DNA of 64,000 nucleotides from an uncultured Azospirillum sp. (GTDB lineage: Bacteria > Pseudomonadota > Alphaproteobacteria > CACIAM-22H2), in contig CAYQDN010000010.1 of NCBI GenBank assembly GCA_964416335.1, positions 18,357-82,356 on the forward strand, given 5' to 3'. Shown one piece after another: positions 40,589-51,556 of this stretch. Made by a program: the position numbers and the translations under genes. Each line of letters starts with the position of its first letter. Position 1 is the first letter of the stretch. Under the pieces are notes generated by a model. The model was not told the origin of the DNA. It searched no databases and worked only from the letters and a program-made list of their open reading frames with translations.

Positions 40589-41782
40589 ATGTCCGTTATT
40601 CGGAGTATCCGGCCGGTTCTCCTCAGCGCACCCTACGGCGAGCTTTCCGGCAATCTTGAGGTGATGCTGCACCTGCCGAGCGGGATGCGGAGCACGGGCC
40701 TGGTCGAGATCACGCTCGACAACGGCATAAAGGGCCTCGGCGAGGGCTACATCGCGGTATTCGCCCCGCATGTCTTCGCCGCGATCGCCGACATGATCGC
40801 GCCGATTGCCGTCGGCCGGGACATCCGCGATCTGGACGATATCGTGCGCAAGCTGGAAACCGCGACCGGCTACTGGAGCTATCAAGGTGCCGCACGACAT
40901 GTCGTCAGCGCGTTCGAGATCGCACTCCAGGACGCGCGGGCGCAGTGCGAGGGCGTCCCGCTTTGGCGGGCACTCGGCGGTCTCGAGCCGCGGAAGTTGA
41001 ATGTCTACGCAAGCGGCGGCGATTCGATCTCGCCGGATTTCATGATGCGGGAAATCGAGGCTGTCGGCGCGCTGGGAATCGCGACTTTCAAAATCCGGGC
41101 CCGCAAGCATCAAGCGAAAAAGGTTCGCTGGTGCCGGCGCGCCGGTGCTCCTGGGGGACTCTCCATCGCCGTCGATATGACGCAGAATCTCGCGGTTCCG
41201 TCCCAAGGGGCCGAAGATGTCCTTGCATTCGTCGCGGCTTGCGCCGAAACGACGCTGAAACCTCTGGCGTTTCTCGAGGAGGTTCAGGGACCGCTGGCGA
41301 TCGAGGCGCTGCCCGGTCTGCGACGCGCGGTCGGCGTGCCGATCGCCGGCGGCGAGATTGTCACGACGCCGGAGGAACTCAACGCGAGGATCAAGGCCGG
41401 GTGCTACGATATTGCCCAGCCGGACGCGACGGTCATCGGCGGCGTCGGCCGCGTCCTTGACGTGTTTGTCGCCGCGAAATCGGCCGGCGTGGCGGTCTAT
41501 GTCCATTGTTGGGGGGCGGGCGTCGGCATGCTTGCCAACTATCACGCTGCGATGGCCGGCGGCGGCGACATGGTCGAATGGCCGATGCCGCGCTATCCGC
41601 TGCGCGAAGCCCTCTTCGCAATGCCGGTCACGGTCGCGGGCGGATGCCTCACTCTCGCTCGCAGTCCCGGTCTCGGCGCGTGCCTCACGCCGTCAATCGA
41701 ACGGGAATTCCGTTTCCGGGACGAAGCCGTCTATCGTTGCCTGGTCGAAGCCCCGATGCCGCCGCCGGCCGATTGGTCATAG
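40589..41782 (+). CDS. Divergent mandelate racemase/enolase-superfamily protein
   Basis: GLGEG, SAFEIALQD, FKIR, AVD, FLEE, AGGE, QPDATVIGG, VH. Confidence 0.85.
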   Translation: MSVIRSIRPVLLSAPYGELSGNLEVMLHLPSGMRSTGLVEITLDNGIKGLGEGYIAVFAPHVFAAIADMIAPIAVGRDIRDLDDIVRKLETATGYWSYQGAARHVVSAFEIALQDARAQCEGVPLWRALGGLEPRKLNVYASGGDSISPDFMMREIEAVGALGIATFKIRARKHQAKKVRWCRRAGAPGGLSIAVDMTQNLAVPSQGAEDVLAFVAACAETTLKPLAFLEEVQGPLAIEALPGLRRAVGVPIAGGEIVTTPEELNARIKAGCYDIAQPDATVIGGVGRVLDVFVAAKSAGVAVYVHCWGAGVGMLANYHAAMAGGGDMVEWPMPRYPLREALFAMPVTVAGGCLTLARSPGLGACLTPSIEREFRFRDEAVYRCLVEAPMPPPADWS

Positions 41783-42766
41783 ATTCTTTGGCTTTGGCGG
41801 GGAGCCAGGTCGCCCAGCTCGGGATGGTGCGGCGACGAGCGGTCGCACGTCGACCCGCGATTCAAGTTCGAGAATGCCGATGCGGGTCGGAAGCGTCCGC
41901 GCGCCGCCGACATTCGATACCGCGAATGCGCCGCACGCCGTCGCGCGTGCCAGGCAGGTCGCCGCCGACGCGTCGTCGAGCCAGGCATCGAGGAACCCTG
42001 CGGCGAACGCGTCGCCGGCCCCGGTCGCATCGACGACCGAAGTGGCAAGCGCCGACGCGGCAAACTGGCGCGTACCGTCCGACCAGATGGCCCCCTGCCG
42101 GCCCTGCTTCAGGACCACCGTCGGCCCGTTCGTCGACAGCATGCGCAGCAGCTGGTCGGGCTCGTCGATCGGCAATCCGGTAAGGGCGGCGGCTTCGGGG
42201 GCGTTGGGAATCAACAGGTCGACGGCGCGCGCGAGCGACAACGCGCCCGGTCTGTGGATCGCCGCATCGTCCCACGCCACATCGAGCGAAACCGTGATCG
42301 AGCATTCGCGCGCGACGTCCAGCAGCGACGGGACCTCGAGCAGCGTGGCAAGCTCCGCGACGTGGAGATGCCGCACGCTGCCGTCGCGCAGGCGGGCCGC
42401 AAGGCCGGACGGCACCGCCGGTCCCGCACGATGCGTGACGAACGACCGGTCGTCCCCGACGGCCAGCGCCACGGTCAATTGCGGGCCACCCTCGAAGCGT
42501 TCGAGCAGGGAAAGGCCGATCCCCATGGCGCGCAACTGCGGCTCGAGGGTGCACGAGACCGGATCGGTGCCGAGTGCGGCCGCGAGTTCGGCACGCCGGC
42601 CGAGACTTGCGAGGAACGCAGCCGATATGAGCGACCCGCCGCCCGGCGTGACGGCGACGCCGGTCGCATAGTGCTCGCGGCCGATCTGCGGCATCGCCGT
42701 CAGGCCGGTCATCACGACATCGGCATAGAGCCGGCCGACGCAGACGACGGTTCCCTTCGTCTTCAC
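41777..42766 (-). CDS. PfkB-family carbohydrate kinase
   Basis: PGGG, PNAPEA, VVLKQG, VVDATGAGDAFAAGFL; GTG start overlaps the ATPase stop. Confidence 0.9.
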   Translation of the reverse strand: MKTKGTVVCVGRLYADVVMTGLTAMPQIGREHYATGVAVTPGGGSLISAAFLASLGRRAELAAALGTDPVSCTLEPQLRAMGIGLSLLERFEGGPQLTVALAVGDDRSFVTHRAGPAVPSGLAARLRDGSVRHLHVAELATLLEVPSLLDVARECSITVSLDVAWDDAAIHRPGALSLARAVDLLIPNAPEAAALTGLPIDEPDQLLRMLSTNGPTVVLKQGRQGAIWSDGTRQFAASALATSVVDATGAGDAFAAGFLDAWLDDASAATCLARATACGAFAVSNVGGARTLPTRIGILELESRVDVRPLVAAPSRAGRPGSPPKPKNL

Positions 42767-49715: not shown

Positions 49716-51556
49716 GCGGTGTGGCGACCCGGCTGGAGGCCGAAGCGGCCGCCGACGGCACGTGGGGGCTGGAACTCGCCCTGCACGGACTTTCCGGCAC
49801 GCTCTCGTTCCTGCAGACCGGTGCGCATCCCGACGACGAGACCAGCGGCCTGCTCGCACTTCTCGTGCGCAAGCTCGGGCTCGAGGTCGGCTACGCCTGC
49901 GCCACGCGCGGCGAGGGCGGCCAGAATGCGCTGGGCCCCGAGCGGAATGCGGCACTCGGCGTCCTGCGCACGGCCGAGATGGAGGCCGCCGCCGCGCGCC
50001 TGGGCATCGCGATGCACTGGCTTGCCGAACCGTCCGACGATGCACTCCGCGATTTCGGGTTTTCCAAGAACGGGGAAGACACGCTGCGCCGCTGGGGCCA
50101 TGCCCACGCGCTCGAGCGGCTCGTGCGCTGCATCCGGCGCGCACGGCCCGACATCCTGTGCCCGAGTTTCCGCGATGTCGGCGGACAGCATGGCCATCAC
50201 CGCGCGGTCACGCGGCTGACGGCAGAGGCATTCGACCTGTCGGGCGATCCGGCGACATTTCCGCAGCACGCCGCGGAAGGACTGGCGCCGTGGGCGCCGA
50301 CGCTCCTCTATGTGCCAGCCTGGTCCGGGGCCGGCGATTCATACGACGACGAGGAGGCGCCGCCCGCCGGCCATGTGCGCTTCGACATCGGCGAATGCGA
50401 TCCGGCGAACGGCGTGCCCTATGCGCGGATCGGCGAATGGTCGCGCGCGTGCCATCGCACGCAGGAGATGGGCCAGTGGATCGAGGCGGGCCCGCGCGTC
50501 GTCGCCCTCCACCTTGCCGCACGCCGCGATGGCGGCACGTCGACCGTCGACCGGATCGGGCAGACGCTTCCGGCCACGCTCGGCGAATGGGCGAAGGAGA
50601 CGGGCAGTGCCGCCCTCGGCGACGCGCAAGGTGCCATCGACAGCGCGCGTGCCGCATCGACCGATCGTGCCGCGGTCGTGCGCCATCTCGAGATCGCGCG
50701 CCGCGCGATCGCGGCCGCGCGCGTCCCCGATCCGCTCGCCGACCGGCTTGCACGCAGCACCCTGCGCTTGAAGCGCGCGATCGCCCTTGCCGGAAACGGC
50801 GGCCGCGCGGGCCCGCCGCAGACGGCAAGGGTATCGGCACCGGCGGTCGTGCGGAACATCCCTCCCGACGGGATCGCGCGGCCGGACGGTGCGCGCGTGG
50901 CCTATCTGGGCGGTGGCCTGGACCAGGTCGGCGGCTGGCTTGGCGCCCTCGGCATCGACGTCGTCGACATGCCGGCCTTCGACGGGCAGTCGCTGGTGGG
51001 CGGCGGGTTCACGACCGCCGTCGTCGGCATCCGGGCCTTCGAGCGGCGCGACGATCTTCATGCGCACATCGATGCGCTCCACGCGTTCGTGCGCGCGGGC
51101 GGGCATCTCGTGACGCTCTATCACCGGGCGGACAAGGGCTGGCAGCCCGCGCGCACGCCGCTTGCGCGCATCGAGATCGGCCGGCCGAGCATCCGCTGGC
51201 GCGTCTGCGATCCGGCGGCACCGGTCGGCGTCGCGGCGCCCGGCCACCGGCTGCTGACCGCGCCGAACGCGATCGGGCCGGCCGACTGGGCCGGCTGGCG
51301 GCGCGAGCGCGGCCTCTGTTTCGCCAGCGCTTGGGATCCGGCCTATGTTCCGCTGTTCGGCATGGCGGACCCGGGCGAGGTACCGCTCCAGGGCGGGCTG
51401 CTGAGCGGCCGGTTCGGCCGCGGGCGGCACACGCATGTGGCGCTGGCCCTGCACAACGAGATCGAGTTCGGCACGACCGGGGCGTTGCGGCTGTTGTGCA
51501 ACCTCGTGGCACCGGAACCCGTCGAAGCCTCCGGGACGGAGCCGGTTTGCGCATGA
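49712..51556 (+). CDS. PIG-L/LmbE-family deacetylase with C-terminal GATase-like domain
   Basis: GAHPDDE, TRGEGGQN, DFGFSK, HGHH, HRTQ; C-terminal VVGIRAF, GGHLV, ERGL; ATGA coupling. Confidence 0.85.
   Translation: MSGVATRLEAEAAADGTWGLELALHGLSGTLSFLQTGAHPDDETSGLLALLVRKLGLEVGYACATRGEGGQNALGPERNAALGVLRTAEMEAAAARLGIAMHWLAEPSDDALRDFGFSKNGEDTLRRWGHAHALERLVRCIRRARPDILCPSFRDVGGQHGHHRAVTRLTAEAFDLSGDPATFPQHAAEGLAPWAPTLLYVPAWSGAGDSYDDEEAPPAGHVRFDIGECDPANGVPYARIGEWSRACHRTQEMGQWIEAGPRVVALHLAARRDGGTSTVDRIGQTLPATLGEWAKETGSAALGDAQGAIDSARAASTDRAAVVRHLEIARRAIAAARVPDPLADRLARSTLRLKRAIALAGNGGRAGPPQTARVSAPAVVRNIPPDGIARPDGARVAYLGGGLDQVGGWLGALGIDVVDMPAFDGQSLVGGGFTTAVVGIRAFERRDDLHAHIDALHAFVRAGGHLVTLYHRADKGWQPARTPLARIEIGRPSIRWRVCDPAAPVGVAAPGHRLLTAPNAIGPADWAGWRRERGLCFASAWDPAYVPLFGMADPGEVPLQGGLLSGRFGRGRHTHVALALHNEIEFGTTGALRLLCNLVAPEPVEASGTEPVCA

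Follow-up and report, generated by a model that had tools for sequence, protein, structure and literature searches.

In a 64,000-nt stretch of DNA from an uncultured Azospirillum sp. (class Alphaproteobacteria; contig CAYQDN010000010.1, positions 18,357 to 82,356), hereafter the window, a gene annotated as argininosuccinate lyase (ArgH) lies inside a sugar importer operon, together with a PfkB-family kinase and divergent from a ROK-family regulator and a PIG-L/LmbE-type deacylase. The lyase keeps the catalytic motifs of ArgH and has exchanged others, the gene set is conserved in related bacteria, and enzymes acting on glucosamine recur beside the lyase even where its transporter and kinase belong to other families. 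We propose that the operon serves to import an N-acyl-glucosamine bearing a 1,2-dicarboxyethyl group, which would be deacylated and split to fumarate and glucosamine, and we put the probability of this general scheme at about 0.7. The conjugate could be bacillithiol or malate-linked glucosamine or N-acetylglucosamine (GlcN(Ac)-malate), a narrower identification to which we would give slightly less than even odds.

The lyase and its conserved operon

The operon region comprises the following features. Families were assigned with Pfam and NCBIfam profile searches, and gene bounds were taken from the sequence itself.

47153-48409, minus strand: periplasmic substrate-binding protein (SBP) of a CUT1-type (MalE/UgpB-like) ATP-binding cassette (ABC) importer (SBP_bac_1, 143 bits; SBP_bac_8, 134 bits)
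46213-47106, minus strand: ABC permease 1 (BPD_transp_1)
45365-46210, minus strand: ABC permease 2 (BPD_transp_1), starting 2 nt past the stop of permease 1
43851-45359, minus strand: ArgH-like class I lyase of the aspartase/fumarase superfamily, 502 aa (Lyase_1, ASL_C2)
42763-43839, minus strand: ABC ATPase of the MalK/UgpC type (ABC_tran, TOBE_2; NF008653, 475 bits)
41777-42766, minus strand: PfkB-family sugar kinase (PfkB, 140 bits; no equivalog reached)
48504-48535, no strand: conserved operator/promoter block, an imperfect palindrome with a TTGAC box, between the divergent operons
48558-49715, plus strand: ROK-family regulator, NagC/Mlc-like, with an N-terminal winged helix (ROK, 121 bits; MarR_2/HTH_24 at residues 14-65)
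49712-51556, plus strand: PIG-L/LmbE deacylase fusion, 614 aa, with a helical linker and a ThuA/GATase1-like C-terminal domain (PIG-L, 72 bits)
51553-52905, plus strand: membrane adenylate/guanylate cyclase (Guanylate_cyc, 79 bits)

The gene order given in an initial annotation of this DNA (SBP, two permeases, lyase, ATPase, PfkB) holds, every named gene being verified by both profile collections, and so does the tight packing it described: spacings from the SBP gene to the ATPase gene are 46, 2, 5 and 11 nt, and the ATPase and PfkB genes share a 4-nt GTGA overlap. The SBP start (MRILKSL) and its ribosome-binding site are kept in six of six Tagaea-like loci. On the plus strand, the PIG-L gene starts in an ATGA overlap with the ROK stop. 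All three divergent genes of the initial annotation are present, with two corrections: its PIG-L protein is a 614-aa fusion and not a plain deacylase, and the cyclase falls outside the conserved unit (see below).

The lyase carries Lyase_1 (PF00206, 136.7 bits), ASL_C2 and the superfamily signature loop SSxMPxKxN, and scores 294.4 bits on the argH model TIGR00838, marginally above its cut-off of 279.5. The genome to which the window belongs, which is 97.6% complete, contains two canonical argH genes elsewhere that score 562 and 509 bits on the same model and whose products are 31% and 30% identical to the lyase. The 562-bit gene (contig C76) is followed by lysA, and the separate housekeeping argH that the initial annotation asked to have confirmed does exist. 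The 509-bit paralogue (contig C8, L009:1177-2898) has all ArgH motifs and adjoins a LysR regulator and an ABC permease.

In an alignment of the lyase with 117 relatives of 62-90% identity, the motifs RSRND, TH..QPAQP and SSIMPQKRNP and the Glu that follows are kept in at least 95% of the 118 family members, and the fumarate-site motifs noted at the outset (SRND, TH, SSIMPQKRNP) are indeed retained in the window's protein. In place of the N-terminal WGGRF region, the NPD motif and the LPLAYxxDxxEDK loop of ArgH, the family has the invariant elements FP.P..TVL, NPVP and HNTPFTDMND; the canonical versions are present in both ArgH proteins of the same genome. We take these three regions to form the arginine-moiety pocket of ArgH. 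Because the catalytic motifs are retained while the pocket motifs are replaced, the fumarate-forming chemistry is probably kept and the leaving-group pocket is probably new. Judged by its sequence, the lyase is a diverged enzyme of the fumarate-releasing type and not the argH of this genome.

The best solved match of the lyase is ArgH/delta-crystallin (EC 4.3.2.1; Thermus thermophilus structure 2E9F; 191 bits), with which it shares Lyase_1 plus ASL_C2, the motifs SRND, TH and SSxMPQK(K/R)NP, and the Glu pairing with His, this His and Glu being the residues whose role has been described (PMC2779060). It differs from ArgH in being about 30-40 aa longer at the C-terminus and in lying within a sugar importer rather than with arg genes or lysA. 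The ethylenediaminedisuccinate (EDDS) lyase of Chelativorans sp. BNC1 (6G3D-6G3I, 6RX8) belongs to the same subtype of about 500 aa, aligns over residues 27-493, the C-terminal extension included (159-162 bits), and is a catabolic enzyme that releases fumarate and has a remodelled leaving-group pocket. That pocket is formed by D290, which follows KKNP, and by Y320′ of the aligned loop (PMC6973171). At these two places the window's family has a V and a different loop; moreover, EDDS lyase has TQ instead of TH, acts on an aminopolycarboxylate and involves no sugar genes.

When proteins are clustered at 50%, the lyase falls in a large radiation of ArgH-like lyases of about 500 aa, and look-ups of ten neighbouring clades returned almost only unnamed metagenome proteins. 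Every source that names any member of the family calls it 'argininosuccinate lyase', a systematic mis-annotation that would conceal an uncharacterised enzyme. Among 301 Alphaproteobacteria searched with a 51%-identical relative (P0126), only the window's own family was recovered, in seven genomes (including G000) and at 412 bits or more, and in a search with NF005218 neither a control genome nor the window's own reached the cut-off. No arginine-biosynthesis family was detected among the 52 window open reading frames (16 + 36) scanned with Pfam, in agreement with the earlier remark that the lyase lies among no arg genes.

A genome scan for relatives of the lyase found 119, and the counts given for related loci refer to the best 80 of these, a gene being scored as present at a coverage of at least 50% and a family-specific identity. 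The full six-gene core of importer, lyase and kinase is intact in 70 of the 80 related loci, which bears out the expected conservation of the cluster, and in 69 of them the divergent ROK gene accompanies it. Individually, the SBP was found in 76 loci, permease 1 in 76, permease 2 in 78, PfkB in 72 and ROK in 71; the PIG-L fusion stands beside the cluster in 50, and a gene for a SIS-type enzyme in 27. The ten loci without the full core comprise six cut by contig ends, three without PfkB (L024, L040, L090) and one, L020, in which the lyase is alone. Records with related loci include Tagaea, Microvirga, Bosea, Devosia, Chelativorans, Paracoccus and other Rhodobacteraceae, among others, so that the operon spans the Rhodospirillales to the Hyphomicrobiales and Rhodobacterales; with another transporter and kinase it extends to distant low- and high-GC lineages. 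An operon so widely conserved would therefore serve for the use of a common environmental compound.

Glucosamine-type partners and a sister lineage

In Bosea the SIS gene of the related loci comes immediately behind PfkB; in three relatives of Tagaea (L015, L016, L018) it also lies behind PfkB, in convergent orientation; and in a Ruegeria locus it follows the PIG-L gene. On the NagB-II model (NF046059) the products reach 242-330 bits, short of its cut-off of 430 and well in excess of their scores on every other model; on the FrlB model they score 26-31 bits, also against a cut-off of 430. No NagB-II-like gene is present in the window's own cluster, and a 40%-identical SIS homologue lies on another contig of the same genome. 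A gene for an unrelated enolase-superfamily (MR_MLE) dehydratase (40589-41782, plus strand) is convergent after PfkB in the window, the spot held by the SIS gene in L015, L016 and L018, and the deaminase appears to have been replaced by MR_MLE at this spot.

The kinase itself scores 54.8 bits on the fructoselysine-kinase model NF007321 (cut-off 247), over 77 residues only, and a search of solved structures returned only generic relatives of the ribokinase, 2-keto-3-deoxygluconate (KDG) kinase and YdjH type, with no ligand named. The same search with the SBP gave only generic sugar-binding proteins, again without a named ligand. The analogy to the Amadori kinases FrlD and FraD that had been drawn for PfkB is not upheld by these scores, and a route of the FrlD/FrlB type was rejected for the reasons given below. 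The partner genes instead point to glucosamine, and PfkB is a putative kinase of glucosamine or of its conjugate.

The third partner, the PIG-L fusion, has the LmbE fold and the HxDD...H motif of PF02585, and its HPDD and HGHH motifs are invariant or nearly so in 38 orthologues. HxDD...H is the metal and base motif of LmbE/PIG-L deacylases, and all characterised members, as summarised in the same source, hydrolyse the N-acyl group of GlcNAc or of an N-acyl-GlcN core (PMC4101496). A search by sequence against solved structures gave no match at E values up to 0.01, relaxed Pfam searches gave none for the C-terminal half, and the ESM Atlas returned only clusters named 'PIG-L family deacetylase'. 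A structure model (predicted local distance difference test, pLDDT, 88.6) was more informative: in Foldseek, the PIG-L domain matched chitobiose deacetylase, MshB and LnmX at E values of about 3e-8, with a Pyrococcus deacetylase as the best hit, and the C-terminal domain matched ThuA-like 1t0b (E 2e-5) as well as the GATase1-like domains of GH42 proteins.

Archaea degrade chitin with a diacetylchitobiose deacetylase, a glucosaminidase, a GlcN kinase and the deaminase GlmD. What this route and the bacterial NagK-NagB-II routes have in common with the clusters described here is the grouping of a PIG-L-type deacetylase with a kinase and a SIS-type enzyme, in the present case a putative amino-sugar kinase and a putative GlcN-6-phosphate deaminase; the difference is that a lyase here stands in place of the glycosidase, so that the aglycone would leave as fumarate.

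The partnership recurs in a sister lineage, whose lyases are 37-42% identical to that of the window. A scan of metagenomes with a 37%-identical relative as query yielded 80 sister loci, 48 of them at least 6 kb long. The gene order in this lineage is ROK, a PhnS/ThiB-like SBP, ATPase, fused permease, PIG-L fusion, in some cases a creatininase-family amidohydrolase, lyase, a BadF-type kinase and, in some cases, a small PIG-L protein. Counts per 80 sister loci are 29 for the BadF/NagK-like kinase, 23 for the ATPase, 22 for the fused permease, 18 for the PIG-L fusion, 17 for the PhnS-like SBP, 10 for ROK, 7 for the creatininase-family enzyme and 6 for the small PIG-L protein. The BadF-type kinase, encoded directly after the lyase, replaces PfkB and has as its best match the NagK of Shewanella (NagK_SO3507-like). 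Both domains of the sister PIG-L fusion are 33-44% identical to those of the window's protein. The families of transporter and kinase are thus swapped in the sister lineage, and the lyase and PIG-L fusion remain together. In a FastTree phylogeny of the lyases, built without support values and therefore approximate in its branch order, PIG-L-linked lyases occur in all three main branches. The part of the initial proposal that foresaw fumarate plus an amino sugar as products gains from the NagB-II-like SIS proteins, the NagK-like kinases and the PIG-L fusion; its specifics, fructose-aspartate and Amadori chemistry, do not.

Sister clades with other gene contexts were also seen (L153, L158, L172, L177; L144, L162; L148, L154; L111, L113, L117, L119). 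In one of these clades the lyase gene is accompanied by that of a divergent M20 peptidase, in some loci alongside an SSF transporter; a second clade has a penicillin amidase together with a protein of the DinB_2 (thiol S-transferase-like) type; a third, an Amidohydro_2 enzyme; and a fourth, an SSF transporter together with a nucleoside hydrolase and a GNAT protein. Pairing an amidase with a fumarate lyase could be a more general theme, and the cases with M20 would be analogous to the 2SL/YxeP scheme. In one low-GC sister locus (L135:8-769), a single case, a membrane dipeptidase (Peptidase_M19) gene directly precedes the PIG-L fusion; enzymes of the M19 family cleave Cys-Gly when glutathione is broken down.

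A possible route and its substrate

We infer a route of six steps. The relative timing of the kinase and lyase reactions is part of this inference, as is the substrate, most likely GlcNAc-L-malate, GlcN-L-malate or bacillithiol released by other bacteria. The ROK protein would repress the operon through the 48504-48535 operator, and the CUT1 ABC system would import the glucosamine conjugate. The PIG-L fusion, acting like BshB or Bca, would then strip the N2 acyl group, releasing acetate from GlcNAc-malate or cysteine from bacillithiol. The lyase would abstract the C3 proton of the dicarboxyethyl unit, and beta-elimination with cleavage of the C-O bond would give fumarate and glucosamine. PfkB would phosphorylate the glucosamine to glucosamine-6-phosphate, a step that could also precede the lyase reaction, and a NagB-II-type deaminase, for which there are candidate genes in the cluster of relatives and elsewhere in this genome, would produce fructose-6-phosphate and ammonia.

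GlcN(Ac)-malate and bacillithiol are candidates because the lyase needs a substrate of the form X-CH(COO-)-CH2-COO- and its partners demand an N-acyl GlcN or GlcNAc. The PIG-L deacylase remains a neighbour of lyases that are about 40% identical to one another, and the sugar N2 therefore presumably carries an acyl group, which fits an O-malyl glycoside such as GlcNAc-malate or bacillithiol better than an N2-(dicarboxyethyl) amino sugar. The natural compounds known to us that join GlcN(Ac) to a fumarate-leaving unit are GlcNAc-L-malate, GlcN-L-malate and bacillithiol (Cys-GlcN-malate). The His of the TH motif, kept in the lyase family and absent from EDDS lyase, whose leaving group is an alkylamine, would suit a leaving group that needs protonation, for example a glycosidic oxygen; we draw here on a comparison of this His with aspartase and fumarase.

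Besides this chemical logic, the identification leans on BshB2-like deacetylases in six sister loci and on bshC in two. The small PIG-L proteins of two of these six loci (L126, L136) were scanned and had BshB2/Bca (TIGR04000) as their best match, at 99-119 bits (E 1e-28 to 1e-34). Two high-GC contigs that belong to different organisms, and whose BshC proteins are 55% identical, carry the PIG-L fusion and the lyase followed by a convergent bshC (PF10079, 270-286 bits) after gaps of about 360 and 10 nt; these are two of the three loci of their clade with enough flank. In the window's genome no match to BshC was found by a search that was positive in Bacillus subtilis, Thermus and Deinococcus, and the organism would therefore be a consumer or scavenger of the compound and not a producer.

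A precedent for the deacylation step exists in the bacillithiol pathway, in which the substrates of BshB1 and BshB2 (Bca) are GlcNAc-malate and the Cys-GlcN amide of bacillithiol conjugates (PMC5790435, PMC4101496). Like the window's protein, they are PIG-L/LmbE metal deacylases with an HxDD...H motif, and it is next to sister-lineage lyases that BshB2-like genes and bshC are found. The differences are that the window's protein is a 614-aa ThuA-like fusion and that the known pathway builds or recycles GlcN-malate. The structures and enzymes of GlcNAc-malate, GlcN-malate and bacillithiol have been reviewed, and the two malates are obtainable enzymatically with BshA and BshB (PMC5790435). Bacillithiol derivatives have been described as more widespread than any other bacterial thiols (PMC6282198), and in its accessible text the bacillithiol review contains no occurrence of 'degradation' or 'catabol' and deals with synthesis and with recycling of GlcN-malate only (PMC5790435). 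A literature search, confined largely to non-subscription journals and without their supplements, likewise turned up no publication that deals with the operon, with any lyase of GlcN-malate or with the catabolism of bacillithiol.

If the substrate is bacillithiol or GlcN-malate, the operon would fill this blank. Bacteria that do not make bacillithiol, this alphaproteobacterium among them, could draw on it for carbon, nitrogen and sulfur, and producers could turn the thiol over. The enzyme would then be a new kind of class I lyase that cleaves an O-malyl glycoside, within the first catabolic pathway for the bacillithiol or GlcN(Ac)-malate core, an assignment that we offer tentatively and hold to be somewhat short of an even bet. 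Glycoside C-O cleavage would be added to the repertoire of the ArgH-like branch, possibly for use in biocatalysis, as is already the case for EDDS lyase.

Several observations weigh against this assignment. Among enzymes of solved structure, those nearest to the lyase act by cleaving C-N bonds, and no precedent was found for cleavage of a glycosidic C-O bond by the ArgH-like subfamily. The PIG-L domain of the window's protein fits Mca (41.9 bits) better than BshB1 (29.4 bits against an equivalog cut-off of 182.5), and BshB ranks only 38th among its Foldseek matches, a comparison that did not separate BshB from MshB or chitobiose deacetylase. The BshB2 scores of the small PIG-L proteins lie below the curated cut-off of 195 bits, and these matches may merely reflect the taxon from which the contigs come. 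The bshC adjacency is convergent and confined to one clade, and so amounts to about one independent event. Bosea clusters have no adjacent PIG-L gene. Finally, in L020 (1-10506), on a contig labelled Solibacteraceae, a 79%-identical lyase without transporter, kinase or PIG-L is divergent from a large nonribosomal peptide synthetase gene (Condensation, AMP-binding, PP-binding); this lyase could be a transferred gene, a binning error or an instance of a second role.

The general scheme could also hold with a different substrate, a natural product that is undescribed or lies outside the candidates considered here, such as GlcNAc with another O-, N- or S-linked 2-succinyl group or a cell-envelope or secondary-metabolite fragment. 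All gene-context evidence that points to glucosamine and to a lyase of the fumarate type holds for such a conjugate too, clues specific to bacillithiol are few, and the sister clades with M20, penicillin amidase, Amidohydro_2 and creatininase-family partners suggest that these lyases have diversified over acylated substrates. Release of fumarate from O-succino or N-succino groups is described for the superfamily, and with 2SL the same holds for S-succino groups (PMC9706529). The 2SL enzyme of the yxe loci, reported to act on an acetylated conjugate with release of fumarate, resembles the proposed enzyme in being a class I lyase with an amidohydrolase partner in a sequence of acetylation, breakdown and deacetylation; it differs in cleaving the C-S bond of N-acetyl-S-(2-succino)cysteine (N-acetyl-2SC) and in having no sugar genes (PMC9706529). 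No candidate compound can be named for this alternative, however, and the bshC and BshB2-like neighbours would have to be a coincidence. We consider it unlikely, about as much so as a coin falling heads twice running.

Slightly less probable still is the type of substrate favoured by the initial annotation, an N-(1,2-dicarboxyethyl) amino sugar such as the Heyns compound 2-deoxy-2-(aspart-N-yl)-glucose, fructose-aspartate or an opine-like conjugate. Here C-N cleavage would give fumarate and an amino sugar, which would then be phosphorylated and deaminated. The C-N chemistry of the solved relatives ArgH and EDDS lyase speaks for it, glucosamine as the product would suit the logic of kinase and NagB-II, and EDDS lyase accepts many N-substituted aspartates (PMC6973171, PMC12363623). 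However, the PIG-L N-deacylase that stands beside the lyase in three deep branches would be without a role if N2 bore the dicarboxyethyl group, and the Amadori models are not reached (FrlD 54.8 against 247 bits, FrlB 26-31 against 430 bits). We know of no natural compound that joins aspartate to glucosamine in this way, although no search aimed at one was made. The Amadori and Heyns systems (FrlD/FrlB, FraD/FraB, GfrE/F) do resemble the operon in combining a kinase, which is of the PfkB family in Frl, and a SIS enzyme in a transporter operon, whereas they contain neither a lyase nor a PIG-L protein; in the known routes for fructose- and glucose-amino acids a deglycase frees the amino acid, and a lyase would be needless (PMC5270733).

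The lyase might instead act on the product of the kinase, either eliminating phosphate in the manner of XcbC in coenzyme M synthesis or catalysing a reaction of the hydratase or cycloisomerase type. The XcbC model gives 191 bits for the window's lyase and 253 bits for a member of the sister lineage, the best solved relatives of PfkB include the acid-sugar kinases YdjH and KDG kinase, and the kinase gene always follows the lyase-ATPase pair. These XcbC scores are nevertheless far below the cut-off of 575 and below the ArgH score; the kinase family switches from PfkB to NagK-like while PIG-L and lyase stay, as expected for a kinase acting on a released amino sugar; and the NagB-II partners would go unexplained. 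We regard this alternative as improbable. A redundant or specialised argininosuccinate lyase, as the passed TIGR00838 cut-off and the name used by every source would have it, is very improbable indeed in view of the two far better argH genes in the genome, the replacement of the arginine-pocket motifs in all 118 family members, the embedding of the gene in a sugar importer in 70 of 80 loci and the lack of arg genes among the scanned open reading frames of the window.

The regulatory block and other genes of the window

In the scheme of import, deacylation and cleavage proposed here, regulation is assigned to the ROK protein. An alignment of six Tagaea-like loci shows the block at 48504-48535 to be the sole strongly conserved intergenic stretch in all six, and a related imperfect palindrome beside a TTGAC box occupies the same place in the Microvirga, Bosea, Devosia, Chelativorans and Rhodobacteraceae loci; the 26-mer of the operator is identical in 18 Microvirga loci. 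An exact-seed repeat finder run on the window did not report the palindrome, which was revealed by the locus alignment. The operator placed at 48508 by the initial annotation is accordingly real as a conserved element. The regulator combines a ROK domain with an N-terminal winged helix and lies next to a divergent palindromic block, as a ROK repressor does, and scores 118-119 bits on the Mlc and NagC equivalog models, below their cut-offs of 530-650.

The cyclase gene starts in an ATGA overlap with the PIG-L stop and is, by this arrangement, predicted to be translationally coupled to the operon of regulator and PIG-L. It is absent from the 80 related loci except for one weak match on the opposite strand in L022, and is a window-specific passenger outside the conserved unit.

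Taken together, the genes of the window mark it as a region devoted to transporters and sugar-acid enzymes. Between 52919 and 57029 lie a HAD hydrolase gene (minus strand) and, after it, an SBP_bac_6-type SBP gene (53761-54795) and a fused double permease gene, the latter two being of the transporter class of the sister operon. A dense group of genes for sugar-acid catabolism occupies 13370-27789 and 31054-32802, where two ILVD/EDD dehydratases, two more MR_MLE proteins, a gluconolactonase, an aldose epimerase, an RraA-like aldolase and further ABC importers are encoded.

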